This document shows positions 13,648-61,190 of a DNA stretch of 64,000 nt, one piece after another. How positions within the stretch are numbered: the stretch's first letter is position 1; each line of letters starts with the position of its first letter. The notes below the pieces were generated by a model that worked only from the letters and a program-made list of their open reading frames with translations, did not search any database and was not told the DNA's origin. The stretch lies in contig CAZXLQ010000001.1 in the NCBI GenBank assembly GCA_964641945.1, forward strand, positions 13,725-77,724, in the 5' to 3' direction. The DNA is from an uncultured Clostridia bacterium. GTDB lineage: Bacteria; Acidobacteriota; Blastocatellia; UBA7656; JADIYM01. Made by a program: the position numbers and the translations under genes.

Positions 13648-13926
13648 ATGAGCTACCACCTCGGACAAGTCTCATCTCAATCGGCCTGCGACGTGGACGC
13701 GATCGCCAAGCCGCAAACCGTCAGGCTCGTCGATGTGTTTCTGTTGGGGCCAGCCTGTCTCGCCGTCGCCTACGGGCTGCCGATGAAGAGTCCGCTCGCG
13801 CGTGCGTTCTGGGCCGTGGCAGGCGTCGGGACTATCTACTACAACGCGAGGAACTACCTCGCCGTGCAGCGGGCGATCCGAGCTGGCGAGGTCTCGACGC
13901 AGAGCGCCTGGAGACTGAGGCCATGA
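13648..13926 (+). CDS. small membrane protein
   Basis: two hydrophobic segments. Confidence 0.5.
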   Translation: MSYHLGQVSSQSACDVDAIAKPQTVRLVDVFLLGPACLAVAYGLPMKSPLARAFWAVAGVGTIYYNARNYLAVQRAIRAGEVSTQSAWRLRP

Positions 13927-42026: not shown

Positions 42027-42080
42027 GCGCCGCGTGCTAGCGTGCGGCGAGCACTCTGAAAACCAAATAGAGGTAGTGGT

Positions 42081-42548
42081 TCGCAAGGGCTGCCCAGCGC
42101 CCTGAAGCTGATGACAGGTTGGGCCCCGACACGCCTCGCCCGCCGGGGGATATCGCAATGGCTGCCCAGCGCCCTAAAGCTGGTGACCGGGTGATGATAC
42201 GGCGACGCGTGCGACCTCCCTCGGGTCGCAAGGGCTGCCCAGCGCCCTGAAGCTGGTGACGGCCGCACGCTTGCTCACCGACTGCTCGGCCACGAGTCGC
42301 AAAGGCTGCCCAGCGCCCTGAAGCTGGTGACCTCGCGCCGCAGGGTGGACGCGCGCCCGAGGCGGACATCGCAAGGGCTGCCCAGCGCCCTGAAGCTGGT
42401 GACGTGTACGTGTGCGCGAGATCGGTGTCGCGCAGCACGTCGCAAGGGCTGCCCAGCGCCCTGAAGCTGGTGACGGAGCGACCTTTTCCCCCCACGAGAT
42501 CCTCGACCGTGCATCGCAAGGGCTGCCCAGCGCCCTGAAGCTGGTGAC
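42081..42548. CRISPR. CRISPR-like array: 7 repeats of about 35-36 nt, 6 unique spacers of 36-39 nt
   Basis: repeat (G/A)TCGCAAGGGCTGCCCAGCGCCCTGAAGCTGGTGAC starting at 42081, 42153, 42226, 42297, 42369, 42440 and 42514; repeats 1 and 2 carry point variants; internal hairpin GGGCTG/CAGCGCCC; no cas genes in window. Confidence 0.8.
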
Positions 42549-43416: not shown

Positions 43417-43441
43417 GGTTCTTTCGACGGAGTCAACCAAG

Positions 43442-43512
43442 TTCGGGGAGAGGGACTCGAACCCCCGTGAACTGGACCAAGGCCAGTCGTCCTGCCGCTA
43501 GACGATCCCCGA
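43442..43512 (-). tRNA. tRNA (anticodon loop CCTTGGT; TTG, Gln-type, C33)
   Basis: acceptor 7/7, T-loop TTCGAGT. Confidence 0.6.
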
Positions 43513-43513
43513 G

Positions 43514-43584
43514 CGCAGCGTGCGGGAGTCGAACCCGCCTGGCGTCGGTGAAAGCGACGCGGCCTCCCGGAAGCCCAACGCTGC
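43514..43584 (-). tRNA. tRNA-Glu(TTC)
   Basis: acceptor 7/7 (43515-21 vs 43578-84), T-loop TTCGACT, loop CTTTCAC. Confidence 0.75.
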
Positions 43585-43597
43585 ATCATCCAGATAG

Positions 43598-43670
43598 AGC
43601 CCCGAGCCGGTCTCGAACCGGCGGCCCCCTGCTTACAAGGCAGGTGCTCTGCCAACTGAGCTATCGGGGC
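43598..43670 (-). tRNA. tRNA-Thr(TGT)
   Basis: acceptor 7/7, loop CTTGTAA. Confidence 0.75.
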
Positions 43671-43851
43671 GGTTTCGTTCTTCACGCCATCGGTCAAGAA
43701 TCGCAGCCGTCTCACGCGTCGCAACGAAAAGCCGCACGGAGAGGCACGACTCGCACTGCCTGTCGCCAGAGTACGACGGCAGGACCCCTTCGTGCCCAGT
43801 GCGACCACACTTCTCGCAGATCGAGTAGAACTCGTGCCAGTAGTCGATCAT
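43633..43851 (-). CDS. doubtful small Zn-binding ORF whose 3' end overlaps tRNA-Thr
   Basis: CEKCGRTGH..CESC; overlap with tRNA 43598-43670. Confidence 0.25.
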   Translation of the reverse strand: MIDYWHEFYSICEKCGRTGHEGVLPSYSGDRQCESCLSVRLFVATRETAAILDRWREERNRPDSSVGRAPAL

Positions 43852-43867
43852 TCGACGAACTGTATCA

Positions 43868-43940
43868 TGCCGGTTGCGGGAGTCGAACCCGCCTGCTCCG
43901 CTTTACGAGTGCGGTGCTCTCCCACGAGAGCGTAACCGGC
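43868..43940 (-). tRNA. tRNA-Thr(CGT)
   Basis: acceptor 7/7, loop CTCGTAA. Confidence 0.7.
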
Positions 43941-43977
43941 GTATACTGCATGCGATGAGGCCCACCGCGACAGAACG

Positions 43978-44166
43978 ATGCGAATGATCTCAACGGCGAG
44001 AACGAGTCTGCTCGACGCTCAGTACGCGCTCGGAGCGATCTCCCGCTACTCACCCGAGGCCGCCGCGCTCCACAAGATCATCGTCGAGACCCGGAAGACC
44101 GTCGAGCGAATGCGTGTCGTCGACGCGCAAACCATCTCGCCCAACAAGAGGCGGAAGCGGCGCTGA
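43978..44166 (+). CDS. doubtful small ORF between tRNAs
   Basis: 62 aa. Confidence 0.3.
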   Translation: MRMISTARTSLLDAQYALGAISRYSPEAAALHKIIVETRKTVERMRVVDAQTISPNKRRKRR

Positions 44167-44239
44167 CGTCCCGTACGCGAATCGAACGCGTGTTTCCAGG
44201 TTGAGGGCCTGGCGACTTGAGCCGCTGGTCGAACGGGAC
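44166..44239 (-). tRNA. tRNA (anticodon loop CCCTCAA; CTC, Glu-type, C33)
   Basis: acceptor 7/7, T-loop TTCGATT. Confidence 0.55.
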
Positions 44240-44560
44240 ATCACGGAGACCGGAAGGCTCGAACTCCAACGCCTTGCGACGTCGCACCGGGTAGCGGCCG
44301 GGCCCAGCACCACCTGCTGGTTCAGTCTCCAAGCGGAAGAAGGAGGTCACGATCCCCAACGCCTTGCGACGCCGCTCCGCTTTCGAGGCGGACCCGGTCC
44401 CCGACCGGTTCTTCTTCCAAGCGGAGAGCGGAGGTCCTGACCCTCAGCGCCTTGCGACGCCGCAACCGCTTCCAACGGTACCCGAGCCCCGCTCGGTTCG
44501 CTCTCCATGGAGAAGTGGGGGCACGATCCCCAGCGCCGAAACGCCCATCGGTGTTCAAAG
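44240..44560. repeat. three or four degenerate ~90-nt tandem units with palindromic core CTTGCGACG(Y)CGC and tRNA-fragment-like GGTCACGATCCCC
   Basis: cores at about 44266, 44356, 44444; partial copy at about 44520. Confidence 0.6.
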
Positions 44561-44942
44561 CCGTGTCGAGCCCAGCTCGATTCCTTCTCCAGTCGGTGAT
44601 CCGTTCGAGTCCGGCGTCTACACACCTGAGTTACCAGCCCAGGACGCCTCAGCAGAAGTCGATTGTTCGGTCACGATCCTCCGCCGCCTGGCCGGGCGAC
44701 TTCAACGGACCGGAGGGACTCTACCCCCAAGGCGCAAAGCACTGGTTCATGATTTTCGCGCCAACCGCATTGACCAAGGGCCAGGAACCTCGCCGACCGG
44801 CGCCCAAGGTCTCACGTACCGTATCTTCCTCTGCTGTACGACACACCCGATTCCCCGAAGCGCTGCCTTGCCCGCCGTGCCAGCGTGCGTCTTCAGCCAT
44901 GGGTAGAAACCGGACTCGAACGGATCACTTACATTCTCACCT

Positions 44943-45455
44943 TCACGCAGCCTTGCCGAAGTAGGGCCGCCATGCCTCAGGGACAGCCCTGAGATCGAAC
45001 TTCTTGGGAACCACCGGAAGCCAGACAGGCTTCTTCGGCTGCCTGAGCAGCTTCATCTTCGCCTCCTCCGGCGTCCGGTTGCCCTTCTTCGAGTTGCACG
45101 GATAGCAAGCCGCGACGATGTTGTCCCATTCCGTACGACCACCTCGCGAGCGAGGGATGACGTGGTCGTAGTTCAGCTCGTGCGCCTCGAAGTCACCGCC
45201 GCAGTATTGACACTGGTGCCCGTCGCGGAGCAGCACGTTCGCGCGAGAGAACTTGATCGACACCTTCTTTCCGCGAGCCTTCCGCACCATACGGATGATC
45301 GACGGCATGTGCATCGCGACCGACGGGGAGCGGATCACCTCCGACGTCGCCTCCACGACCTCTGCCTTTTCGTCGTAGAGCAGGCAGATCGCCCGCTCCC
45401 AGGAGACGATCCGACTTGGTTGGTAGAACGAATCGAGGACGAGTACGCGCTGCAT
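44943..45455 (-). CDS. HNH endonuclease
   Basis: DGHQCQYCGG..YDHVIPRSRGG..WDNIVAACYPCNSKKGN. Confidence 0.75.
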   Translation of the reverse strand: MQRVLVLDSFYQPSRIVSWERAICLLYDEKAEVVEATSEVIRSPSVAMHMPSIIRMVRKARGKKVSIKFSRANVLLRDGHQCQYCGGDFEAHELNYDHVIPRSRGGRTEWDNIVAACYPCNSKKGNRTPEEAKMKLLRQPKKPVWLPVVPKKFDLRAVPEAWRPYFGKAA

Positions 45456-45472
45456 GATCTGGCTCCGTGATC

Positions 45473-45545
45473 TGCGGACCGTCGGAGTCGAACCGACACT
45501 GAGCGGTGTTTGAAGCCGCTGCCTCTGCCGTTGGGCTACGTCCGC
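45473..45545 (-). tRNA. tRNA (anticodon loop TTCAAAC; CAA on a short-variable-arm scaffold, identity unclear)
   Basis: T-loop TTCGACT, acceptor 6/7. Confidence 0.5.
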
Positions 45546-45559
45546 GTTGAGGTTGGTCG

Positions 45560-45587
45560 ATAGTAAGGTTCGTGTCTGACAAGTCAA
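45560..45587 (-). promoter_or_regulatory. promoter TTGACT-N16-TACTAT with TGTCAGACA in spacer, upstream of tRNA 45473-45545
   Basis: minus-sense cttcTTGACTtgtcagacacgaacctTACTATcgacc. Confidence 0.5.
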
Positions 45588-45594
45588 GAAGCGA

Positions 45595-45668
45595 TGCGCG
45601 AGGACGGATTTGAACCGACACTTGCTAGGTTCTTAGCCTAGTGCCTCTGCCAGTTGGGCTACCCGCGC
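45595..45668 (-). tRNA. tRNA (anticodon loop CTAAGAA; identity unclear)
   Basis: T-loop TTCAAAT, acceptor pairs with one G-U. Confidence 0.5.
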
Positions 45669-45670
45669 GT

Positions 45671-45744
45671 TGCCGACGAGTGGATTTGAACCACCACTGG
45701 GTACGGTCTGAACGTACTGCCTCTGCCAGTTGGGCTACATCGGC
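45671..45744 (-). tRNA. tRNA (anticodon loop TTCAGAC; CAG on a short-variable-arm scaffold)
   Basis: T-loop TTCAAAT, acceptor pairs with one G-U. Confidence 0.5.
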
Positions 45745-45750
45745 GTGGAG

Positions 45751-45824
45751 ATGCACGACCAGAGATCGAACTCTGCTGGGGCGACGTGTGAGATCGCTGC
45801 CGTCTCCAGACGGCTCGTCGTGCA
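45751..45824 (-). tRNA. tRNA-Val(CAC)
   Basis: acceptor 7/7; imperfect T-stem; loop CTCACAC. Confidence 0.6.
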
Positions 45825-45924
45825 GGTTCAGATCGTCATCCGTGTCGCGCACACCTCGGCCGTGGCCACGGCCGCCGGACTCCTAGCCGGGACTGATGAC
45901 GATCCGGTTCGGTCCGCGGACCGA

Positions 45925-45996
45925 TCGGGCTGGCCGGACTCGAACCGGCAACTACTCCGCCCCGAACGGAGTGGGGTACCTTTCCCCTACAGCCCG
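45925..45996 (-). tRNA. tRNA-Pro(CGG)
   Basis: acceptor 7/7, T-loop TTCGAGT, loop TTCGGGG. Confidence 0.75.
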
Positions 45997-46077
45997 GAAG
46001 TCTGGGTGGCCGGTTCCGCCCCGGCGGCCTCGTGCTCCCCGAGCACGCGCTCTGCTTGCTGAGCTACACCCAGATGA

Positions 46078-46148
46078 TCGCAGCGGCGAGAATCGAACTC
46101 GCTCTGCCCGCGTATGAAACGGGTCCTCGGCCATCGAGGATCGCTGCG
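46078..46148 (-). tRNA. tRNA-Met(CAT) (Met/fMet/Ile2 not distinguished)
   Basis: acceptor 7/7, loop TTCATAC. Confidence 0.7.
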
Positions 46149-46231
46149 TTGGTTTGCGGCCCCCGGAGTCGCGCCGGGTTGGCAAGGGGTATGAGCCCAA
46201 GCTGGTATCTCCACCTGCGCCGCACAAGACA

Positions 46232-46303
46232 CGCTGTCGGGTTGACTCGAACAACCATCTCCGACTTCGGACGTCGGGATCCTATCCTTTGGACTACGAC
46301 AGC
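46232..46303 (-). tRNA. tRNA-Arg(CCG)
   Basis: acceptor 7/7, loop GTCCGAA. Confidence 0.75.
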
Positions 46304-46779
46304 TTTTTCCACGAAAGCGGGACAAGTAGCCCGTGGTCCATCTCCCAGTGGCAGTTGCGACACAGGATCGCCACGTTGTCCTCCGCGTTGACCTCTGAGA
46401 GCGAAGCGCTCTCGCTGAACCCCGAGATTGGCTTGATATGGCAGAACTCGACATGCTTCGAGTACCCACAGTTCTCACACACTCTTGCACGGTGAGCGTT
46501 TGATTCGCGGCAGTGAGTCCGTACCAGCGAGTGTCGCCACGGCCCATCCTTGGAACGCTGAAGTTCTCCCAACGTGCGCTCACGCGACTTGTCCACAGAG
46601 ATGCACGCGATGCACTTCTGCCTCCTGGACCGCTCTACCTGCACTCCGCAAGCGCTACATGCCGGACGCGGGTTTCGCTTTCTCTTGACGGTCTCCCTGT
46701 TTGTCATGCGCGCGGAGCAGGTGCGAGAGCAAAACCTTGGGTTCTCCGTCTCCTGGCCGCACGTGGCACACTTGACCAT
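46294..46779 (-). CDS. HNH endonuclease
   Basis: C-terminal CHIKPISGF..NVAILCRNCHWEMDHG; N-terminal Cys clusters; start at MVKCATCG. Confidence 0.75.
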   Translation of the reverse strand: MVKCATCGQETENPRFCSRTCSARMTNRETVKRKRNPRPACSACGVQVERSRRQKCIACISVDKSRERTLGELQRSKDGPWRHSLVRTHCRESNAHRARVCENCGYSKHVEFCHIKPISGFSESASLSEVNAEDNVAILCRNCHWEMDHGLLVPLSWKKLS

Positions 46780-46789
46780 GACGCGTGGC

Positions 46790-46817
46790 AATCTAGCCAC
46801 CCACTGTCTGACAGTCA
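46790..46817 (-). promoter_or_regulatory. promoter TTGACT-N16-TAGATT with TGTCAGACAG in spacer, 10 nt before HNH ATG 46779
   Basis: minus-sense gcgTTGACTgtcagacagtggtggcTAGATTgccacgcgtcATG. Confidence 0.55.
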
Positions 46818-46892
46818 ACGCCCACGGAGGGACTTGAACCCCCACGAGACCCAGGTTCGTAGCCTGGCGCTCTATCCATTGAGCTACGCGGG
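46818..46892 (-). tRNA. tRNA-Arg(ACG)
   Basis: loop CTACGAA, acceptor pairs with one G-U. Confidence 0.7.
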
Positions 46893-46899
46893 CAGAAGA

Positions 46900-46974
46900 C
46901 CGCGACCGGAGGGAGTCGAACCCACATCGATCCATTACGGTTCACTCGTTTAGAAAACGAGACCGGTACGGTCG
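46900..46974 (-). tRNA. tRNA (anticodon undetermined)
   Basis: canonical T-arm, acceptor 7/7 (46901-07 vs 46968-74); internal arms ambiguous. Confidence 0.5.
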
Positions 46975-47481
46975 CCCAGATGTAGCCAGGCCATGGGCCT
47001 TCGCCCACTTTCTGACAGCGTTATCCGACACGCCGAACATCTCACCGAGCGCGACCCACGAGTGCGTCTCCAACAACTTCTCAAGCTCCTCCTTCTCTGG
47101 TCGCTTCGCGATTCGCGAAGCCATAGCGGAGCATTCGTACGAGCAAAAACGCGCGTTGAACGTCTGGCGTCCGCATCGCTCGCACGTGGACGATTCGCGA
47201 GGCCCGTAGCGCTCCATATTGTGCGCGGCCACATGCTGCCTGTGATCCATGACCTCCAAGTTCTCTGGACGGTTGTCGTCCTTCAGCTCGTTCTTGTGAT
47301 GGACGCTTTCGGATGGCAGTACCCAGCGGCCGATCGTGATCGATGCGACGTGACGATGGACGTAAACCTTCCCCTGACTGTTTGCGAGCGGGTGAGATTT
47401 ATCCAGAAAGTACATGTACCCGAGCGTCTTGTCCTTCTTCGGCGGCTTTGCGCAAGGATCCCAACTGTACTCTTGGTCCAT
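46942..47481 (-). CDS. HNH endonuclease (HNH_3-like) with C-terminal HTH
   Basis: HHKNELKDDNRPENLEVMDHRQH; 3' end overlaps tRNA 46900-46974. Confidence 0.75.
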   Translation of the reverse strand: MDQEYSWDPCAKPPKKDKTLGYMYFLDKSHPLANSQGKVYVHRHVASITIGRWVLPSESVHHKNELKDDNRPENLEVMDHRQHVAAHNMERYGPRESSTCERCGRQTFNARFCSYECSAMASRIAKRPEKEELEKLLETHSWVALGEMFGVSDNAVRKWAKAHGLATSGRPYRSRFLNE

Positions 47482-47515
47482 GTTTTTGGCCTAGAATGTT
47501 GAGGTTCGAATGTCA

Positions 47516-47583
47516 AGGACCGACCGCGAATCGAACGCGGCTTCGACGGGTTGCAATCGTCGGTCTTCCCAGAAGACCGGTCC
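47516..47583 (-). tRNA. tRNA-Cys(GCA), tentative, compact D-arm
   Basis: T-loop TTCGATT, loop TTGCAAC, acceptor 6/7. Confidence 0.45.
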
Positions 47584-47588
47584 AGAAA

Positions 47589-47659
47589 AGCGGGCGGCGA
47601 GAATCGAACTCGCTTGGCTGGGTTGGAAGCCCAGAGCCTAACCAGTCGGCCACGCCCGC
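47589..47659 (-). tRNA. tRNA-Gly(TCC)
   Basis: acceptor 7/7, loop CTTCCAA. Confidence 0.75.
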
Positions 47660-47822
47660 ATAGCCGGCGCAGGAGAAAGGCGGCTCCCTACGCCCACACC
47701 GTCATCGACGGCTCGGTCCTGCGACCGAGCGCTCCGCCCAACGCAGAGCCCCCGACCGGCATCGCACCGGCACCATCGTCCATACCAAGGACGCGTTCTT
47801 CTTCTTGAACTTCGGGGGCACA

Positions 47823-47895
47823 TGGACCTGGAGGGCTCCGCCCCCTCCGCCTCCTGCTTGCAAGGCAGGCGCTCTCCTGAATGAGCTACAGGCCC
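47823..47895 (-). tRNA. tRNA-Ala(TGC) with G3:U70, non-canonical T-loop GGCGGAG
   Basis: anticodon arm cctgc/TTGCAAG/gcagg, D-arm gctc..gagc, acceptor GGGCCUG with G3-U70. Confidence 0.55.
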
Positions 47896-47898
47896 AGA

Positions 47899-47970
47899 TC
47901 GTCGCGCCGGGTTCCGCCCCCGGGGCCTCCTGCGTGTCGAGCAGGCCTCTTCTGACTGAGCTACGCGACG
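47899..47970 (-). tRNA. tRNA-Val(GAC)-like, non-canonical T-loop GGCGGAA, C33
   Basis: acceptor 7/7 (47900-06 vs 47964-70). Confidence 0.5.
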
Positions 47971-47974
47971 AGAA

Positions 47975-48050
47975 CTCCCGCGGTGGGAATCGAACCCACG
48001 CCATCGTGCCCACGGCACCTTGTTGGGAAACGCGCTTCCCTAGCGACCAG
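47975..48050 (-). tRNA. tRNA-like element: canonical 3' half, 5' end unresolved
   Basis: T-arm gtggg/AATCGAA/cccac; only 7/7 acceptor partner lies 210 nt away at 48185-48191. Confidence 0.3.
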
Positions 48051-48191
48051 GGATCTCCTTGCCATTCGGTGCATCCGCAACCCGCGGTGCCTACCCACAC
48101 CCCGAGGACAGCCCCAAGTAGCAGGCGGCCCGATGCCTTTTACGGTGATCGGCTCCGTTTTTCCGACGTTCTGCCTCTGAACTACGCGGGA

Positions 48192-48264
48192 TGGAGCAGT
48201 CGGGGATCGAACCCGCCACAGCCCGCGTATCAGACGGGCCAGGACAACCAGTCACTTCCGCTCC
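48192..48264 (-). tRNA. tRNA-Ile(GAT)
   Basis: loop CTGATAC; acceptor pairs with one G-U. Confidence 0.7.
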
Positions 48265-48268
48265 GAAG

Positions 48269-48343
48269 CATCCCCAGCGCGACTCGAACACGCGACCTGA
48301 TCTTTAGGAAAGATCTGCTCTGATCCAACTGAGCTATGGGGAC
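48269..48343 (-). tRNA. tRNA-Arg(CCT)
   Basis: loop TTCCTAA; D-arm gctc/gagc. Confidence 0.7.
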
Positions 48344-48426
48344 ACGATCTGGTAGACGGGACCTGCCCCCGCTTGACCTGGAGCCACAATCCAGGGCCTC
48401 GACTACTTCGGCCTCTACCAGCATGA

Positions 48427-48497
48427 GAGCGGATGGGGAGAATCGAACTCCCAGAGTCGCGCTGGCAACGCGACCGCCTCACCATCGGCAACATCCG
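48427..48497 (-). tRNA. tRNA-Gly(GCC)
   Basis: acceptor 7/7, loop TTGCCAG. Confidence 0.75.
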
Positions 48498-48501
48498 CAA
48501 C

Positions 48502-48574
48502 ATGGACCTCAGCGGGGTCGAACCGCTGACCTCCTCGATGCCATCGAGGCGCTCTCCCAACTGAGCTAGAGGCC
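48502..48574 (-). tRNA. tRNA-Ala(GGC) with G3:U70
   Basis: loop ATGGCAT; acceptor GGGCCUC with G3-U70. Confidence 0.7.
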
Positions 48575-48638
48575 CGAAGAAGATCCGACGAACCGAAACT
48601 GCTCGGTGGTTGGGGATTGTTGGTGCGCCGGACCTTCA

Positions 48639-48710
48639 TCTGGGTGACTGGAATCGAACCAGCCGAGACGAGCACCCAAAGCTCGTGCCGCACCTTGCGG
48701 CTCCACCCAG
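48639..48710 (-). tRNA. tRNA-Pro(TGG)
   Basis: acceptor 7/7, loop TTTGGGT. Confidence 0.7.
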
Positions 48711-48714
48711 GGAC

Positions 48715-48788
48715 CGCCTCGTAGGGGGATTGAACCCCTCTCGACACCGCTCGACAAGCGGCCGGCGTCCCCAGACGCCTCACGAGGC
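48715..48788 (-). tRNA. tRNA-Asp(GTC)
   Basis: acceptor 7/7, T-loop TTCAATC, loop TTGTCGA. Confidence 0.7.
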
Positions 48789-48816
48789 ATTGGCGCGGCG
48801 AATCGTCGACGCGCGA

Positions 48817-48889
48817 TGGGACGTCTCGGAGTCGAACCGAGTTCTGTGGATCTTCAGGCCACCGCAATGACCGCACTTGCTCACGTCCC
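48817..48889 (-). tRNA. tRNA-Phe(GAA)
   Basis: acceptor 7/7, loop CTGAAGA. Confidence 0.7.
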
Positions 48890-48931
48890 AAGCGGGAAAC
48901 GCAGAGGCGCAAGCGTCTCCACGTGACCCCA

Positions 48932-49003
48932 CAGGCCGTGCAGGAGTCGAACCATGCTCGACGACGGATTTGGAGTCCGTCCGGCTGCCTCAGCCTACGG
49001 CCT
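48932..49003 (-). tRNA. tRNA-Trp(CCA)
   Basis: acceptor 7/7, loop CTCCAAA, imperfect T-stem. Confidence 0.65.
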
Positions 49004-49007
49004 GTAG

Positions 49008-49081
49008 CTCCAGGGGTCGGTGACGATCCGACAAGCACTCCGGTAACAGCGGAGCGGCTAGCCAACTTTGCCTTCCCTGGA
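49008..49081 (-). tRNA. tRNA-Asn(GTT), atypical T-loop ATCGTCA
   Basis: acceptor 7/7, loop CTGTTAC. Confidence 0.6.
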
Positions 49082-49139
49082 ATAGCGGACGCCCTCACGG
49101 ACGCCCGCGCTCTACTTCTTCAGTTTTCAGAGAGCCGAG

Positions 49140-49210
49140 TTCCGGCGCCAGGAATCGAACCTAGATTTTCGCGTTCAGAGCGCGACGGCCTGCCGTTAGC
49201 CGAAACCGGA
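49140..49210 (-). tRNA. tRNA-Gln(CTG)
   Basis: loop CTCTGAA, acceptor 6/7. Confidence 0.65.
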
Positions 49211-49281
49211 TGGGCTGCCAGGGAATCGAACCCTGCACGGCCTGAGTAAGAATCAGGTCCCTCCCTTGAGGGGTGCAGCCC
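49211..49281 (-). tRNA. tRNA-Lys(CTT)
   Basis: acceptor 7/7, loop TTCTTAC. Confidence 0.7.
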
Positions 49282-49660
49282 GCTGCTTCGATCTGGTCTT
49301 TCTGCTTTGCGCGGCGCTCGCCGCCCTGCATTCGTCACACCTGCGTCCGTGCCGGTACATCGCGAACGTTCCGTGCTTGCGAAGTTCGCGACCGAGATCC
49401 TCCTTGACCGTCTTCTCTGTGTGACATCGAGAGCAAAGAAGCTGACAGAGCTTCAGCTCCTTCATGAAGCGAGACATGCCGCAGCCGTACATTCGACTGA
49501 ATGGCATGGTCTTTTTCTTTCGATCGATATGATCCACCTCCAGACCATCAACACTGTCACAGCGAGCGCACTTGCCGCCCAGAACAGCAATCGCCAACTC
49601 GCGCCGCTCGTGGTAGCGACGCTTCATGTAGACCCTCATGTGTGCCGCGTTACTCGACAT
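49253..49660 (-). CDS. HNH endonuclease
   Basis: LEVDHIDRKK..CQLLCSRCH; 3' end overlaps tRNA-Lys. Confidence 0.75.
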   Translation of the reverse strand: MSSNAAHMRVYMKRRYHERRELAIAVLGGKCARCDSVDGLEVDHIDRKKKTMPFSRMYGCGMSRFMKELKLCQLLCSRCHTEKTVKEDLGRELRKHGTFAMYRHGRRCDECRAASAAQSRKTRSKQRAAPLKGGT

Positions 49661-49686
49661 CGTCCTTGGGAGCGAGAGGAGTCGAA

Positions 49687-49758
49687 CCTCCGCAGTCCGG
49701 AGTAAAGGTCCGGTGTCCAGCCATCAGACGCCGCTCCCGCGTTCACGCGGCAGCGCGT
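49687..49758 (-). tRNA. tRNA-Lys(TTT)-like (C33)
   Basis: acceptor 7/7, loop CCTTTAC. Confidence 0.55.
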
Positions 49759-49940
49759 TTCTCCTCTCTCTTCTCGCCGACACCGCGGACCGTGCGGCGA
49801 TCCGCGTCGGACATGACCCGCCAGAGCCCGTCCAGCTCGTCCTGAAGACGATCGACCTCGTCCTCTCCACCACGCAGATGCGCCTGCCTGAGGCGCTCCC
49901 GCGCCCGCTTGTACCTCTCGACGATGTGATGGGTGCTCAT
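49743..49940 (-). CDS. doubtful small ORF between tRNAs
   Basis: 65 aa. Confidence 0.3.
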   Translation of the reverse strand: MSTHHIVERYKRARERLRQAHLRGGEDEVDRLQDELDGLWRVMSDADRRTVRGVGEKREEKRAAA

Positions 49941-49960
49941 GATCTTGTTCCTGTTGCTGT

Positions 49961-50041
49961 TGGAGCCGCTTGGAATCGAACCAAGTCTCCCCGGAGGGAG
50001 CGGATTTACAGTCCGCCTGCGACACCAGCCGCATCGACTCC
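49961..50041 (-). tRNA. tRNA-Tyr(GTA), class II with variable-arm hairpin
   Basis: loop CTGTAAA, variable stem ctccc/gggag, acceptor pairs with one G-U. Confidence 0.7.
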
Positions 50042-50249
50042 AGAAACGACGAAGGCCGCCTGGTTTCCCTGGCGGCCTCCGTAGGTTCTGGGACTTTAGG
50101 TCCTCTTTCTACGATGCCGCCTCCGCTTCCCGGATGCTGGGCTTCTGGTTGCGGTCGACCTGGTGCCACGTCGGGCGCACCTCGGTCGACCCGCCCAGAA
50201 GGCGGGTACCGAGATACATCGTCGCGAACCTGGATGACAACATGGTCCC

Positions 50250-51700
50250 CTACTCATGCCAGATGTCCGACAGGCCGTCAAGCGAAAAAGTGATCGTTCT
50301 TTCGACCCACACTTCCCTACGAATCGTCGGGGCTCTCGATCGGCGCTCGTCGGGTCGGACCCTCCAGTTTGCCATCCGGACCACATTCTTCTTGTAGGAC
50401 TTCGGGCACTGGGGTCATCCCTCTTCGGGCCGCTCAGGTCGCTGCACAACCGACCCGAGCGAGCACCACGCTCGTACCGAGCGCCTTCACATTCTGAGCC
50501 GCGTTCACGTCACGGTCCACCACGTATCCGCACGGGCAGCGGTGCTCACGGACGCTCAGGTCCTTGGGCACCACGATTCCGCACCGGCTACAGCGCTGGC
50601 TCGTGCCGCGAGCATCGACCGCCACACACCACTTGCCGGCACTCTCAGCCTTGCAAGCTACGGCATGCACCAGCGTGCTCCACGCAGCATCCGTCACCGA
50701 CTTGGCCAGCACACCAGCCGCCAAGCCCTTCACGTTCAAGTCTTCGACTGCGATGACGTCATACTTCGCCACCAACACGCACGCGAGCTTGCGTGCGAAG
50801 TCGAGCCGTTGCTGCCGCACGTGGGCATGCGCCTTGGCCACGAGCCGCTGAGCGACCCTGGCCCCCTGCGTGGACTTCTGCCCGCGGCGCCGTCGCCGCG
50901 CCAGGCGCTGTTGGCGCATGGCCAACTGGTCTTCGGCCTTTCGGAAGAACCGCGGCGCGGCGATGGTCTCGCTGTCGCTCGTCGCCACCAGCGACGTAAG
51001 CCCCACGTCGATTCCGACCACGCTCTGAGCGGCCTCGGCTGCCGGCACCTTTGGTGGTGCGGCGCCCAGGTCGCAACTGAAGCACACGAACCAGCGGCCG
51101 GTCGCTTCGCGGCGGACGGTAACGTTGCGGATGGCACCCGTGAGCGACCGGTACTCGTGGAACCGCACCAGGCCGAGCTTGGGGATACGGACGTGCGCCG
51201 AGCGCGTGCCGCGCTGAGCGGCGACCGGCGCAACTCGGCCGACCTCGAAGCTGTCGTAGCGAGAAAGCGACCGGAAGCGAGGGTAGCCCGGCTTCTGGCC
51301 CGCCTTCACGCGGCGGAAGAACGCCTGGAAGGCGCGATCGCAGCGACGGAGCGCCGAACGTTCGACCTCGACGGGGATGCTGGCGATGATCTCGTCGGAA
51401 GACCGGAGCGAGGTCAGCTCGGCGGTTTGGCTGTTGTAGGTCACGATCGGCGCGGGCTTGCGCTCGACGCCGCGATCGGTGGCCGCCTGCCGCTGGCGCT
51501 TCTCGTGCTCCCACGCGTCTCGCCGGTGCTGGAGCGCGGCGTTGTAGAGCTGCTGGCAGGTCCGCAGCCAAGAACCGAGCGTGGTCTCCTGGGCGACGGT
51601 CGGATGTAGCGGGTAGCGGAAGGTGCGGAGCAAGAGGGGTATGGTGTGAAGGGCAAAGTCAAATGTCAAATGCCTCCACTACCCGGACTCGCACAGGCGA
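50250..51700 (-). mobile_element. IS200/IS605-family TnpB-only element (IS1341-like remnant; ends not defined)
   Basis: tnpB with no tnpA; expected omegaRNA region downstream of tnpB 3' end at about 50250-50480. Confidence 0.45.
50434..51669 (-). CDS. tnpB: TnpB (OrfB) RuvC-like transposon-associated nuclease
   Basis: N-terminal RTFRYPLHPT..QLYNAAL; C-terminal zinc finger CSRCG..CPCGYVVDRDVNAAQN. Confidence 0.85.
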   Translation of the reverse strand: MTFDFALHTIPLLLRTFRYPLHPTVAQETTLGSWLRTCQQLYNAALQHRRDAWEHEKRQRQAATDRGVERKPAPIVTYNSQTAELTSLRSSDEIIASIPVEVERSALRRCDRAFQAFFRRVKAGQKPGYPRFRSLSRYDSFEVGRVAPVAAQRGTRSAHVRIPKLGLVRFHEYRSLTGAIRNVTVRREATGRWFVCFSCDLGAAPPKVPAAEAAQSVVGIDVGLTSLVATSDSETIAAPRFFRKAEDQLAMRQQRLARRRRRGQKSTQGARVAQRLVAKAHAHVRQQRLDFARKLACVLVAKYDVIAVEDLNVKGLAAGVLAKSVTDAAWSTLVHAVACKAESAGKWCVAVDARGTSQRCSRCGIVVPKDLSVREHRCPCGYVVDRDVNAAQNVKALGTSVVLARVGCAAT

Positions 51701-51797
51701 CCAACGTCCTCCAGCATCTTCGCCTTGGTTTAGATCGGAACGTCGCCGGGCAACATAACTAGCTTCGTCCTCTTGTACCTGGAGAGATTCCCGCCCT

Positions 51798-52112
51798 TCA
51801 CGACTGCTCCACATCCGCGACGTGCTCCGGCCCGAACACGACTTCATCGCCCCAACGCAAGCCGAGGATGGTGGCCGGATGGTTCTTGAGCTTGCCCTTG
51901 TACTCAACCCCGTTCGCAGTCCTGGACCTCGATGAAATCTCCACCCACATCCGCTCGCCAGCGGGCTTTCCGCCGATCATCGAGCCGATGAAGATGAGCT
52001 TCACCAGATCTTTCGCTCGCAAGTCTTCGCGGAGCGAACGCTCGGGGATTTGGAACGTCGAGTAGTGACGATCGTTCTGCGCTTCAGCAGATTCGAGATG
52101 CCACGGCTTCAC
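51798..52112 (-). CDS. hypothetical protein (GTG start, GAGGAG RBS)
   Basis: GTGA overlap with upstream stop; ORF-track N-terminal extension rejected. Confidence 0.5.
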   Translation of the reverse strand: MKPWHLESAEAQNDRHYSTFQIPERSLREDLRAKDLVKLIFIGSMIGGKPAGERMWVEISSRSRTANGVEYKGKLKNHPATILGLRWGDEVVFGPEHVADVEQS

Positions 52113-52531
52113 AGTTCGTACTCCTCGACCAGCTCCAGAAATCGATCTGGTTCGCAGATCATCGTGTCGCTGCCACTCGGGTAGTTCGATGGTACGTGCC
52201 AGCCGTCCACGCCGGACACGCGGCACACTTGCTCGGCAAGCTCGAAAACCCCTGGCTCAGCCTCCTCACCGAGTTTTTGCTCGACCCAATGCGACAGGTT
52301 TCGCATGTCCGTCTCTTCGCTGATGATAATCAGCCGAGGGGCTTCGATGATCTTGAACGCCAGCACGCGCGGAGGACCGCCGCCTTGGTTCCACGTCGTG
52401 AACTCACGTGCAACCGTCTCGGCGTCTGAGACCCATGCTGGACCACGCAGCTCAGTAAACCTCTCCATCGCACTCGTCCCGTGATAGACGAGCGTTCCCT
52501 TCCGAAGAGGCTTCCGGATCGACAGCTTCAT
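52109..52531 (-). CDS. hypothetical protein with YHGTS motif
   Basis: start at MKLSIRK (uncertain). Confidence 0.45.
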   Translation of the reverse strand: MKLSIRKPLRKGTLVYHGTSAMERFTELRGPAWVSDAETVAREFTTWNQGGGPPRVLAFKIIEAPRLIIISEETDMRNLSHWVEQKLGEEAEPGVFELAEQVCRVSGVDGWHVPSNYPSGSDTMICEPDRFLELVEEYEL

Positions 52532-52745
52532 GCGGCGGTGTGAACAACACAGCAGAGGTAAGCCCCCGCCTGGCATCCTCGAAGACACGACTCGGGCATG
52601 TGAACGGCTCCGCAGCCACACCGGCCCGGAGACAACGACGAGCCGCACCCTGAACAGACCCACCTGTGCTCGCTCTCAGAGCGTCCGCAGTTTGCGCACG
52701 GATCGAACCTACCGGGATGAGGGTCGAACGTGAGCTGCTTGGTGA

Positions 52746-53561
52746 TCATCTCTTCCATTCGCTCGCGCTCCCGTGTCGGAATGCTTCCTTGAGAACCTCG
52801 CCGACCAGACCCTCTGACGAACGGTGCCACATGTACTCGATCTTGGCCCTTGAGAAAGGACGCACGGTCAGATGTGTAGGCACAAAATCGTCTTCCAGAT
52901 CACTTCCTTCCTCGACGCATTCGATCGTGAAGATGTCGTCGATGCCTAGCAGGTCTTCGACCGCTCCTTCGGCATCAAACACATCGGTCAGGTGCAAGCT
53001 GCCGAAGCCCAGACGATCAGCGACTCGGCTGACCGCCGGAGCGTCCGCAAAGATGAAGGTGTCCGCGGCCAAACGATCGGCGCATTCAAGCGTCGGTTCC
53101 CACTCAAACTCTTTCCTGAACCAGGCGAGAGATCCCTCAAAGATTCCCCAGGGCTCCTCATCGTCTTCGTACTCCTCGTACTCCTCGTCTTTGACGACGT
53201 ACTTGAACTCTCCACCCGCAGCTTTGCCCATCGATCTGCGCACCAGATAGTTCAAGATCTTCAACGCTTCCACCTGATCGATGCCGCCTTCTTCGTACCT
53301 CAGCGATCGAAGCACATCGCCAAAAGACATCCATGGCCACAGCCACGACAGTCGGCTACCGCCGTCATGGATGACGGCTGCATGCACCATCGACGATGGG
53401 AGAAAATGGGCCCTGGAAAGTTCCTTGCTGCGAGACCAAGGATCTCCTGGAACAGCCGAGTAGACCAACGCAGCACCCAAGCATGGGGTGAAGGACAAGG
53501 CTTTCCTGGCTGACCTCGTCGGATCTTCCGACTGAGTGCCACGGAAAACGAAGTCGCTCAC
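52746..53561 (-). CDS. hypothetical protein with acidic EEYEEYEDDEE stretch
   Basis: 271 aa. Confidence 0.5.
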   Translation of the reverse strand: MSDFVFRGTQSEDPTRSARKALSFTPCLGAALVYSAVPGDPWSRSKELSRAHFLPSSMVHAAVIHDGGSRLSWLWPWMSFGDVLRSLRYEEGGIDQVEALKILNYLVRRSMGKAAGGEFKYVVKDEEYEEYEDDEEPWGIFEGSLAWFRKEFEWEPTLECADRLAADTFIFADAPAVSRVADRLGFGSLHLTDVFDAEGAVEDLLGIDDIFTIECVEEGSDLEDDFVPTHLTVRPFSRAKIEYMWHRSSEGLVGEVLKEAFRHGSASEWKR

Positions 53562-53803
53562 CGAACCACCCGCAGCCTCTTCCCGTCGGCTGCCCGTACC
53601 TTGTCATCACCGGCGAGAACCCAGTTGTTGCAGCAACCATAGGTCTTCACTGGCACCTTCAACCCCAAGCACCAGCCATCCTTGTCGCCGCGGTAATCGA
53701 GCTTCGAGCACGTGCCGCAGAAGTAGCCGGGGCCCGCATGAGAGAAGCCCTCGACCTGAACGTAGCCTGCCGATTGCTTGATCTTGCGTTCCTCGGGAGT
53801 CAT
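53558..53803 (-). CDS. small Cys-rich protein
   Basis: CGTC..CC; ATGA overlap. Confidence 0.45.
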   Translation of the reverse strand: MTPEERKIKQSAGYVQVEGFSHAGPGYFCGTCSKLDYRGDKDGWCLGLKVPVKTYGCCNNWVLAGDDKVRAADGKRLRVVR

Positions 53804-54162
53804 CGGCGTCCTCCGTCACTACGTCTTGATCGATTCCACTCGCTGAGGTAGCGCGCGGCGGCATCCAGATCATCGCCACCTCGAAGCCGTTCGTACTCTT
53901 CGCGCTGACGAGCATCGAAGGCCGCCATGTCGTCCTCGAACTTCTCCTCGATCTCCTCGATCCTGGCCCGGCCATCGACGAGCGCCGCATCCAGACGAGC
54001 AGAAATCTCGTCCTCGCCGGGCCCGGCATCGATCCCGATGACCACTCCGGGGTCGACTACCACCGTCGGACCTGCACACCGAGTCCCGCCGTAGAACATC
54101 GCAATGGCCAGCAACAGAGCCGCCACCCCGAGAAGAATCCCTTGCGTCCTTGAAATCGTCAC
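53800..54162 (-). CDS. N-terminal TM plus coiled-coil protein (GTG start)
   Basis: GTGA overlap with 36-aa peptide ORF; ILLGVAALLLAIAMF. Confidence 0.45.
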   Translation of the reverse strand: MTISRTQGILLGVAALLLAIAMFYGGTRCAGPTVVVDPGVVIGIDAGPGEDEISARLDAALVDGRARIEEIEEKFEDDMAAFDARQREEYERLRGGDDLDAAARYLSEWNRSRRSDGGRR

Positions 54163-58951: not shown

Positions 58952-60346
58952 TCATTTCCGAACGCGGGTGGTCCCAAGCATCGCACCACGATCTTCCGGA
59001 TCGACATCCGGAGGCCACTTGGTGCGCGAATCGTATCTCGCACGGTACAAATCGGTCTCGAAAAGGTTTGCGCCGAAAAGATTCGATCCGTATAGAGCGG
59101 CACCAGAGAGGTTGGCGTGCGAGAGGTCGGCGTGCGAGAGGTCGGCGTGCGAGAGGTCGGCGTGGGCCATCCTTGCTCTCGAAAGGTCCGCGCCAGACAG
59201 GTTCGTGTTGCTCAGTTGACGGCCGATCAGGTCTGCGCCGGCCAGGTCTCGTCCCGCCAGTGATGCGCGAGAAAGCAGAATCCCGTTTGGCTCGCCGCCC
59301 TTTCCTCTATCGACGAACTCCACGACCATCGACCGGATCGCCTCGACCACAGCTTTGACTTCGTGCCCTCCCAATGGCGGCTCGTTGTCCTGTCCCGCTT
59401 GCAGCACGTAGGTGGCGAACTGAGCGTCCCCGATGTTCGAGTTGGCTTGCCCGAAGATCTGCAAGAAGCTCCCGCCCCAACGATTCTCATTTGACGGCTT
59501 CCACTCCATCGTGACGTACGGGACGCCGTCCGGGTCTCGTAGCGAGTAGATCACGCTATCGCCGTGCTCCACCGCCTCGCAGTATGTTCCGACGCAGTGG
59601 CTGAGGGCTTTCCCCTCAGGCTCCAGCTCCCGCCTGCCTCGCAGCTCTTGCACGGTCCATCCGGTCGGGAACCGGTAGACGACCTTGCCCTGGCGCACCT
59701 TCTTCGAGTAGCGGAAGGTCTTGATCGCTTCGAGGACTTCCGCGAGCGACTTCTTCATCAGATCGATGCGATTCAGCTTCGCCCACTGAGCGATGGCATT
59801 GCCTGACCGGCGGAGCCTTCCAAGAGCCTCCTCGTAGTCACGGTACTCGTCCAGCGGTGCAAGGTTCTCCTCGATTGCCTTCTCCACAGCCGTGATGGTG
59901 TGCTTCGAGAGCTTGCTCAGCTCACGAGCCACCCACGGAAAAATCCCGTCTGCCTCGTGCGGCTCACGCATGGCACCGCCAGCGAACGTCGGCAACGCGA
60001 TCGTCTCAAGCAGCAAACGAAGAAGATGCCGATGGCCCGCAGGACCAACCGGCCAATAATCGTGCTCTACGAGGCGTACGTATCCGAGGTTTGAGATGCC
60101 CAACCATTGAAAACTTGGTCGCGGAAGACCTGTGACGAGAGAGCCGCCCGAGTAGAGATCAAGAAGGTCTCGGCGACCTTTCCCATGGGCCTCGTAATAC
60201 GCGTCCTCGACCTCTCGCCACGACTCGTCGATTCCGATGGTTGGGAAGATCACGCTGAGCGTGTCGAGCACGACCCATGGTTGCTTCTCGATGTACATCT
60301 TGGTGATGTACTGAAGCCGGTCGATCGCTGCGTTCTTCGTCAGCAC
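58952..60346 (-). CDS. PcfJ-like domain protein with C-terminal pentapeptide repeats (paralog of 116-1780)
   Basis: WTVQELRGRRELEPEGKALSHCVGTYCEAVEHGDSVIYSLRD; ADLSHADLSHADLSHANLSGAAL repeats; GTG start 1 nt after upstream stop with GGGGG RBS. Confidence 0.6.
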   Translation of the reverse strand: MLTKNAAIDRLQYITKMYIEKQPWVVLDTLSVIFPTIGIDESWREVEDAYYEAHGKGRRDLLDLYSGGSLVTGLPRPSFQWLGISNLGYVRLVEHDYWPVGPAGHRHLLRLLLETIALPTFAGGAMREPHEADGIFPWVARELSKLSKHTITAVEKAIEENLAPLDEYRDYEEALGRLRRSGNAIAQWAKLNRIDLMKKSLAEVLEAIKTFRYSKKVRQGKVVYRFPTGWTVQELRGRRELEPEGKALSHCVGTYCEAVEHGDSVIYSLRDPDGVPYVTMEWKPSNENRWGGSFLQIFGQANSNIGDAQFATYVLQAGQDNEPPLGGHEVKAVVEAIRSMVVEFVDRGKGGEPNGILLSRASLAGRDLAGADLIGRQLSNTNLSGADLSRARMAHADLSHADLSHADLSHANLSGAALYGSNLFGANLFETDLYRARYDSRTKWPPDVDPEDRGAMLGTTRVRK

Positions 60347-60347
60347 G

Positions 60348-61190
60348 TCACCCCCGACGGTTGCGACGCATCGAGCGTCGCCAGATCGCCCATCCCAGAA
60401 CACCTGCACCAGCAAGAACGGCGATGCCGCCGACGATCGGAACCGCTGACGACCTAGAAACCCCGATCGCCGCGGCTCCTGCCGCTTCTACGGCCGATCG
60501 CACACGCTCCCATTCGGGAGCCCACCGGTCGTACGCCTGTCGCAACCGAGTGACGTAGACAGAACAGTCCGAGCAGCCGTTGTACCTGCGAGCCAGCTCG
60601 TTCCAGTCCATCGACCTCGCAGCGGTCTGAGCGCGAGGGTTCGCCCGCATCCACGCCGCCAGTAGCCGTTCGCTGACCAGAGACGGGTCGCTGTCGAACC
60701 CTCTCACGGCCGCAGCCGCGTCGTCTCCGAAGAGAGACAGCAGATGGCCGCCCAGCACCTGGTAGCTGCCCCAGGATGTCGCCTTCACGGCTTCGCGAGG
60801 TGCGAGCCTGAAAGCTCGGTCGAATGCCGCTCGGTTCGTTTCAGACCCGGTACAGGATGCTGAACGCGAGATGCGGCACGGTTCGAGCCCGTTCGCTGAT
60901 CGCCAGTCGTTGTTGCCCGGCGTGTAGGGCACCGCAGCCATGTCCGCGGCTGACATGGCGGCACGGATCTGGGGACCGGACGTTCCGGTCGGCAACCCTT
61001 TTCGCATACGCCAGTAGAGATGTGGCTCAAAACGCACCACCGACGGGTTCGATCCAGATTCGACCGACCGAATGGATCGCAGAGCGGTGATGGGGATCTG
61101 TGCCTCGTTCGCAAGAGCGAGGTCTCTTCGCCAACCTTCCAGGTCTGCAACCAACGCGGCCTGTCCGAGGCCGCTCACCGCGTAGGACAT
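60348..61190 (-). CDS. DUF3380-type N-acetylmuramidase-like protein with C-terminal TM anchor (candidate endolysin)
   Basis: TSWGSYQVLGGHLLSLFGD resembles the SWG.FQIMG muramidase motif; C-terminal AVPIVGGIAVLAGAGVLGWAIW; start trimmed to MSYAVSG. Confidence 0.5.
   Translation of the reverse strand: MSYAVSGLGQAALVADLEGWRRDLALANEAQIPITALRSIRSVESGSNPSVVRFEPHLYWRMRKGLPTGTSGPQIRAAMSAADMAAVPYTPGNNDWRSANGLEPCRISRSASCTGSETNRAAFDRAFRLAPREAVKATSWGSYQVLGGHLLSLFGDDAAAAVRGFDSDPSLVSERLLAAWMRANPRAQTAARSMDWNELARRYNGCSDCSVYVTRLRQAYDRWAPEWERVRSAVEAAGAAAIGVSRSSAVPIVGGIAVLAGAGVLGWAIWRRSMRRNRRG

Follow-up and report, generated by a model that had tools for sequence, protein, structure and literature searches.

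The stretch of DNA analysed here (64,000 nucleotides, positions 13,725 to 77,724 of contig CAZXLQ010000001.1 in assembly GCA_964641945.1; the window) carries, in an uncultured phage, a gene for the RNA-guided nuclease TnpB within a short mobile element that interrupts a small phage gene. With a probability that we put at about 0.6, the sequence comparisons point to a role of this TnpB element in RNA-guided homing or competition between co-infecting phages. The element is present or absent at one and the same site, and the guide predicted for its RNA (omegaRNA) matches the allele that lacks it. The phage setting agrees with that suggested in an initial annotation, which had described a solo TnpB and raised several further possibilities that are taken up below.

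The boundaries of the element follow from a comparison with related metagenome contigs, in which homologues of its upstream neighbour gene occur at 70-95% identity. Two of them (L271 and L272) carry tnpB at the same position, whereas a sister contig (L270) has the same gene order without tnpB and an intact 78-aa open reading frame (ORF) instead, 1300 bp of the window corresponding to 57 bp in L270. Base-level comparison of the occupied and empty alleles places the whole element at 50405..51684 on the minus strand, a length of 1280 bp (1281 if the conserved terminal C at 50404 is included). The empty allele reads ...TTGGTCGCAACTGTG CGAAGTCC TACAAGAAGG..., with a single CGAAGTCC in the context CTGTG CGAAGTCC TACAAG. 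In the occupied allele, ...CTGTG CGAGTCC is followed by the element, GGGTAGTGG...CCAGTGCC (its ends may also be written GGGTAGTGG...CCACTACCC), and then by CGAAGTCC TACAAGAAG.... The target-site duplication (TSD) measures 8 bp, or 7 bp if the conserved terminal C is counted as element, and its left copy, CGAGTCC (51685..51691, minus strand), lacks one A of the target CGAAGTCC present in L270. We had first taken the flanks for an extended inverted repeat; the empty site shows a direct duplication. The left terminal inverted repeat (TIR), GGGTAGTGGAGGCAT (51670..51684, minus strand), carries a TAG stop codon (51681-51679) and matches the reverse-complemented right end at 11 of 15 positions (P about 2e-4 with the termini fixed). 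Directly after it comes a hexamer resembling a -35 box, TTGACA (51669-51664). The GC content is 67.6% in the element and 61.9% in the window. This discrete insertion, with TIRs, a TSD and only tnpB and its omegaRNA as cargo, is a non-autonomous mobile element.

Related elements have similar ends, with perfect or near-perfect TIRs of 18-32 bp (z>6). In L002, the closest relative whose ends are clean, the TIR is perfect (15/15) and the left end matches that of the window at 15 of 19 positions. TSDs of 8 bp (L002 and L251) and 9 bp (L115) were found, unrelated in sequence. The TIR of L115 matches the IS903 inverted repeat at 14 of 18 positions, a repeat that was verified beside an annotated IS903 transposase; duplications made by IS903 are 9 bp long. 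Elements of the IS200/IS605/IS1341 type have neither TIR nor TSD (PMC13565253, PMC3119063), and the same is true of IS607. Judged by its ends, the window element bears the signature of DDE-type cut-and-paste transposition and not of IS200/IS605/IS1341 peel-and-paste. The IS605/IS1341 membership considered in the initial annotation was abandoned because of the TIRs and the 7-8-bp target duplication, proven by the empty site of L270. Among the best 25 of the 32 families in one scan of the 78 ORFs of the window, there was no Y1/HUH, serine-recombinase or DDE transposase and no Cas family, in line with the earlier statement that no HUH-type TnpA adjoins the gene. No resolvase family appeared there either, and IS607 membership was rejected on this ground and on the presence of TIR and TSD. 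With no transposase in the window, mobilization would occur in trans, and we infer a DDE transposase as the enzyme responsible. When viral contigs were scanned with the left-end motif GGTAGTGGNNGGCNTTTGAC, the one match was a chance match with no tnpB behind it. A Polyangium relative (L283) was discarded as an informative partner, having no TIR and adjoining a large serine recombinase that is probably a prophage integrase. A TSD search for the left ends of other close relatives yielded none besides L002, so that no transposon-associated motif (TAM) could be derived.

The gene that the element interrupts codes for a member of a conserved family of basic phage proteins of ~78 aa (18 clusters), and the insertion point lies in its conserved ...CAK/SYKK... 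segment. The gene is truncated because the left end of the element brings a stop codon, which leaves a 5' fragment of 40 codons (51679..51801, minus strand) in the window and L271, compared with the intact 78-aa ORF of L270. Alignment of the right flank with L270 and L279 places the 3' remnant, out of frame in the window lineage, at 50317..50404 (minus strand). In public metagenomes, the occupied allele was found in at least 10 contigs, the empty intact allele in 2 and an empty allele with one additional A in 6; the metagenomes holding these contigs include SRR15237813, SRR20718481, SRR14126288 and ERR7764193. The additional A (P0133 and L279-L282; ~L279:3150-3175) is among the first five bases of the predicted target and shifts the reading frame of the small gene, and this allele may be an escape mutation. 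Scans of viral contigs for the empty and occupied junctions returned nothing, and both the lineage and the upstream neighbour gene are absent from IMG/VR.

Some further features of the locus are recorded here. The +1 A alleles read GCGAAAGTCC (also CGAAAGTCC...), compared with GCGAAGTCC at L270:6455-6480, and the left TSD copy of the window has undergone the opposite change, a loss of one A. The window lineage lacks, at ~51705, an in-frame stretch of 42 bp, GCGTTCGAGAGCTAGATTCGAGGTTCGACCCGACCGGCAAGA (L270:6412-6453), which the interrupted gene has in L270 and L279.

The element itself differs from its counterparts in L271 and L272 at 1-2 of 1280 bases, and the gene directly to its left is ~9% divergent, with the break at the left end. 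The gene at 51700-52112 differs by ~9% from L271, L272, L001 and L270, and the stretch at 52200-53900 is nearly identical to L271 and L272. On this pattern, 51700-52112 is a sharply bounded exchanged segment that ends at the left end of the element.

The tnpB ORF (50434..51669, minus strand) has a maximum length of 411 aa and contains the RTFRYPLHPT...QLYNAAL block, the zinc finger C360xxC363...C378xC380G and the DRDVNAAQN motif, exactly as initially annotated. Translation probably starts at the TTG at 51633, giving a product of 399 aa, since the proteins of relatives start two codons before RTFRYPL. The 411-aa ORF comprises the Pfam domains HTH_OrfB_IS605, OrfB_IS605 and Cas12f1-like_TNB, and matches NCBIfam guided_TnpB with 254 bits over profile positions 2-388 of 389. 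The best natural match of solved structure is the TnpB of ISDra2 (8bf8; E=2.5e-36, ~36% identity over 355 residues), compared with only E=7e-12 for LaTranC; by these scores the protein is a canonical short TnpB and not a TranC/Cas12-like form. When it was aligned with 38 relatives at 51-70% identity, D221, E309 and D387 as well as C360, C363, C378 and C380 proved invariant. D387, located in DRD(E/V)NAA, aligns with the catalytic D361 of ISDra2 TnpB, and E309 with the E of IIGTEHL. As far as alignment can tell, this is a full-length TnpB with an intact RuvC D-E-D triad and zinc finger, which bears out the earlier description of a solo TnpB. The 96%-identical tnpB of L001 differs from it by 31 synonymous and 9 non-synonymous codon changes (~3.4:1), and 36 of 46 differences fall at third positions, a pattern of purifying selection. 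All 46 differences are confined to one 400-bp patch (50900-51300) that is ~11% divergent, and outside it the two sequences agree completely over the element and 360 bp of right flank, a distribution that indicates recombination between tnpB alleles.

Homologues of the protein are frequent in viruses: 368 deposited phage records match it, all at <60% identity. TnpB being common in phages, the bare sighting of a phage TnpB is ordinary. Five of the five closest relatives with contexts examined have phage-like surroundings. An exact-peptide scan of reference genomes found only relatives of ~35% identity, mostly cyanobacterial and of no use for delimiting ends, and a near-identity DNA search of the locus against deposited phages gave no match.

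The 3' part of the gene and its flank appear to encode the omegaRNA. The 3' flanks were compared among tnpB relatives from metagenomes and IMG/VR, where conservation runs 15-50 nt beyond the tnpB stop, closes with the motif GACCACUACCC and then collapses. In the window, the corresponding sequence, ...AUGACCCCAGUGCC (50405..50419, minus strand), is the right-end TIR and also the predicted 3' terminus of the omegaRNA, as indicated by the GACCACUACCC end of the alignable flank, by covariation between loop and terminus and by the coinciding empty-site junction. The scaffold would thus end at 50405, 29 nt past the tnpB stop and at the same point as the insertion junction. Upstream, inside the last tnpB codons, lies a hairpin, CGCUC-GGUAC-GAGCG (50469..50483, minus strand; loop 50478-50474), whose form in the clade is CGCUC-GGUAG-GAGCG. 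Its stem is conserved and covarying, being 100% paired with changes on both sides in 4 of 5 pairs. The loop GGUAC (50478-50474) is complementary to the terminus GUGCC (50409-50405), and the pairing recurs across sub-families with different bases (loop/terminus GGUAG/CUACC, GGGAU/AUCCC, GGGAA/UUCCC, GGCUU/AAGCC and GGCAG/UUGCC; GGUAU/AUACC in the Polyangium relative). The right end of the window departs from the clade motif at two positions, and both restore pairing with the changed loop base; by sequence, the two substitutions are compensatory.

The pairing was tested on 12 elements with right ends located from an empty site, a TSD or the end of the TIR; among them, 95% of cells pair and both sides change in 7 of 10 pairs. 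The covariation score was 0.61, compared with 0.16 in shuffles (0 of 500 reached 0.61), and slid controls were only 18-51% paired. From these comparisons, the omegaRNA overlaps the 3' end of tnpB and closes in a pseudoknot at the element boundary, in keeping with the terminal pseudoknot known from prokaryotic omegaRNAs (PMC13565253). The overlap had been anticipated in the initial annotation; the span then given, 50250-50480, has to be replaced by a scaffold ending at 50405 and a guide at ~50404-50385. In this lineage the right end has moved away from the TIR consensus, yet a compensatory change has preserved the pseudoknot, so that selection appears to favour nuclease or guide function over transposability. 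An Rfam scan of 49500-52500 returned tRNAs only and no omegaRNA family, a sigma-70 promoter scan found nothing, and terminator-like matches were not above chance. In one relative (L190), a right-end-like sequence, GGTGTTAGGACCCGACCCC, occurs twice, ~60 nt apart and 0-80 nt after the tnpB stop, and may represent a duplicated right end or a second guide unit.

Directly 3' of the scaffold lies the predicted guide, CGAAGUCCUACAAGAAGAAU (50385..50404, minus strand), its length taken over from ISDra2. Its first 8 nt (50404-50397) are the right TSD copy. The guide matches the empty allele of L270 over 17 contiguous bases, and at 18 of 20 overall, and is preceded there by ...AACTGTG (target AACTGTG-CGAAGTCCTACAAGAAGG) and not by the element end. 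Within the window, its perfect match is unique. At the left junction the match falls out of register after only three bases, and cleavage of the occupied genome is therefore not expected. Four further matches with 3 mismatches to the 17-nt guide (at 2489, 36886, 47798 and 59452; 0.1 expected from shuffles) are probably a codon-composition effect (Lys/Tyr codons) and not off-targets, as none of them keeps the first 12 bases.

These observations suggest a model in which tnpB would be transcribed from a promoter in the left end of the element, and the 3' part of the transcript, with the scaffold largely within the last ~100-150 nt of the ORF, would serve as omegaRNA. The scaffold would close by the pseudoknot between the hairpin loop and the last bases of the element, and the next ~16-20 nt, CGAAGUCCUACAAGAAG..., would be the guide. 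The TnpB-omegaRNA complex would then recognize the uninterrupted allele of the same gene. Upon co-infection with a sister phage carrying the empty allele, the nuclease would cut that genome. The break would then either be repaired with the occupied genome as template, so that the element is transferred (homing), or simply harm the rival phage. A similar action would be expected of the HNH endonucleases in the neighbouring tRNA island. Expression, the TAM, cleavage, gene conversion and the supply of a transposase in trans are parts of this model that we infer from sequence.

The system has much in common with the TnpB-omegaRNA of ISDra2, an IS200/IS605 element (PDB 8bf8/8exa/8h1j), including the protein family, the domain order, the RuvC D-E-D residues and zinc finger, an omegaRNA overlapping the 3' end of tnpB, the boundary pseudoknot and a guide taken from the flank. 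ISDra2, however, has a Y1 TnpA and subterminal hairpins, lacks TIR and TSD and inserts 3' of TTGAT, whereas the window element combines TIRs with a 7-8-bp duplication and shows neither a TnpA nor an identifiable TAM. The solo-tnpB elements of the IS1341 group likewise carry TnpB only and are presumably mobilized in trans; the missing Y1/HUH TnpA, not found in the window scan described above, would be allowed for that group. IS1341/IS605-type elements are nonetheless without inverted repeats and target duplications (PMC3119063, PMC13565253), unlike the element studied here.

TnpB branches linked to DDE transposases (IS630, ISL2 and IS1031; Altae-Tran et al. 2023) possess inverted terminal repeats and solo derivatives (PMC10691335). 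They share with the window element the position of TnpB within 250 bp of an end, the TIRs and the solo copies that suggest mobilization in trans. It differs from them in its 7-8-bp duplication (9 bp, with IS903-like ends, in the cousin L115), compared with the 2-4-bp duplications of the IS630, ISL2 and IS1031 groups, and in residing on a phage replicon. By the sequence of its ends, it belongs with these DDE-linked branches and not with IS605. Fanzor provides another parallel, a TnpB-type nuclease in a transposon with TIR and TSD and with the guide beside the right end, though Fanzors are eukaryotic and larger, and of their two TSD copies the 3' one lies in the scaffold and the 5' one belongs to the TAM. 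Fanzor1 is without a terminal pseudoknot (PMC13565253), in contrast to the RNA predicted here. Free-standing homing endonucleases of phages (e.g. T4 SegB, in a tRNA region) resemble the element in their presence or absence, in an exchange boundary by a tRNA island and in the predicted cutting of the allele that lacks them. The element differs from them in that its target would be recognized by an RNA guide and in being a transposon with its own ends.

The surroundings of the element include a repeat-spacer array and a tRNA island. Seven copies of a 36-nt repeat, GTCGCAAGGGCTGCCCAGCGCCCTGAAGCTGGTGAC, the leftmost degenerate, lie at 42080-42548 with spacers of 35-38 nt, 7.9 kb from tnpB, so that the orphan array noted initially at a distance of 8 kb is real. 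The repeat had no match among Rfam CRISPR direct repeats, and the array none in deposited phages or plasmids. Compared with the omegaRNA region on both strands, the repeat scored 19 (null 14.9 +/- 2.3; reached by 25 of 300 shuffles), and it has no GURCC end strand of the kind needed for the pseudoknot. Nothing in these sequences links the array to TnpB. Spacer 5 (42404-42438) matches the ORF at 1911-3017 of a TnpB-bearing contig (L112) at 26 of 35 nt, 21 of them contiguous, which hints at targeting of other phages by the array with the help of a host Cas system.

Between array and element, 27 tRNA genes occupy 43441-50041 and are interspersed with four HNH endonuclease genes (44943-45587, 46294-46935, 46942-47481 and 49253-49660), all on the minus strand. 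The last tRNA gene, tRNA-Tyr (49961-50041), lies 363 nt beyond the element end and does not abut it as had been thought. The segments most divergent from L270, around 49000-49100 and 49500-49700, suggest turnover of homing endonucleases in the tRNA island. An 88-bp tandem duplication (44328-44499; 2 copies, 77% matches) overlaps tRNA-Ser (44333-44418) and may be a duplicated tRNA fragment. Two paralogous large proteins with a PcfJ-like domain and C-terminal pentapeptide repeats are encoded at opposite ends of the window and in opposite orientation (116-1780, plus strand; 58952-60415, minus strand).

Homing or competition between phages has to be weighed against the view of the element as a selfish passenger of the ordinary kind, which a transposase supplied by the host of the phage or prophage moved into a dispensable gene, and whose TnpB only re-cuts the vacated donor site after excision (restorative homing) and has no phage-phage role. 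Such a passenger would show the architecture seen here, in which a gene is interrupted by a transposon with TIR and TSD. Transposon retention is the established role of TnpB (PMC10055086, PMC13565253), the 368 matching phage records show how common the nuclease is in phages, and the target gene looks dispensable because a frameshifted allele also circulates. Cut-and-paste excision, however, usually leaves a footprint and not a clean target that matches the guide. A passenger would also not account readily for a right end that lost the TIR consensus while the RNA pseudoknot was kept, for an element near-identical across phage backgrounds that are 9% apart next door, or for the phage-like contexts of all five closest relatives examined. 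We regard this view as unlikely, if well short of negligible. Another exapted phage function, such as a domesticated RNA-guided regulator of the TldR kind, is very improbable. Phage TnpB derivatives that act as transcription factors do exist (PMC10705468, PMC13418256), but their RuvC domains are inactivated, whereas D221, E309 and D387 are intact here. The guide, moreover, matches the element's own insertion site and not a promoter, and a discrete insertion carried by some of a group of near-identical phages and missing from others is not a fixed gene, which also speaks against the domestication considered in the initial annotation. Still less probable is a decayed, non-functional remnant of an IS605/IS1341 element. 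No transposase appeared in the window among the best 25 of 32 families, the right-end motif is off the clade consensus at two positions and the left duplication copy is one base short, as decay would predict; yet the ORF is full-length, its catalytic and zinc residues are invariant, synonymous changes exceed non-synonymous ones by ~3.4:1 and the right-end substitutions restore pairing with the changed loop. The features named beforehand as marks of decay, a mutated RuvC site or a missing omegaRNA scaffold, were not seen. As for the functional link between TnpB and the cas-less array, in which the pair would form a proto-type-V CRISPR effector, we give it next to no chance. The array is real, no cas gene was seen in 64 kb among those same best 25 families and Cas12 evolved from TnpB (PMC10691335), but the repeat has neither significant similarity to the omegaRNA region nor a GURCC end strand, TnpB has its own adjacent guide, 27 tRNA and 4 HNH genes intervene, and the protein is a canonical short TnpB and not TranC/Cas12-like. 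By sequence, the protein does not look like an effector of the type V CRISPR-Cas or TranC kind that draws its RNA from the repeats of an adjacent array.

Several points weigh against homing or competition between phages as well. The inverted repeat of the window is significant only with the termini fixed, an unanchored search giving z=-0.4, and no partner transposase was found in the window or in the viral-contig scan with the left end. The pseudoknot test is partly circular, perfect-stem hairpins having been picked and the terminal pentamer chosen at the CC(C) end, and L099 and L193 each have one uncompensated mismatch between loop and terminus. The bases 5' of the duplication differ in the three clean-ended elements (CTGTG, AGCCG and CAATG), leaving a permissive TAM at the empty allele unsupported. 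A Fanzor-like register, with the duplicated bases acting as TAM or scaffold (PMC13565253), would leave 2 mismatches in 16 in the L270 target. Ordinary mosaic recombination could explain why the element is less divergent than its left flank, and the empty and occupied alleles come from different samples. With these reservations, RNA-guided homing or competition is the reading that we favour. A more specific version of it is put forward tentatively, as possible and no better than that: TnpB on a DDE-type element would act as a programmable nuclease in phage-phage homing or competition, the end bases would double as TIR and pseudoknot strand with the RNA function prevailing, and the +1 A allele would be an escape in the TAM-proximal seed. 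A reading in which there is no partner transposase at all and the TIR/TSD insertion is carried out by TnpB itself seems to us hardly credible.

That the solo TnpB might work for the cas-less array nearby is an unsupported idea and can be set aside. To our knowledge, a natural role of TnpB has been demonstrated for no elements other than those of the IS605 type in bacterial chromosomes. The combination of TnpB with DDE-type ends and a 7-8-bp duplication is an association described as rare in prokaryotes, and the element would offer a case in which the same few bases are under constraint twice, at the end of a transposon and within the fold of a guide RNA. Since occupied, empty and +1 alleles, the last of these possibly escape alleles, exist in closely related phages, RNA-guided homing between viruses would be directly testable in this lineage.

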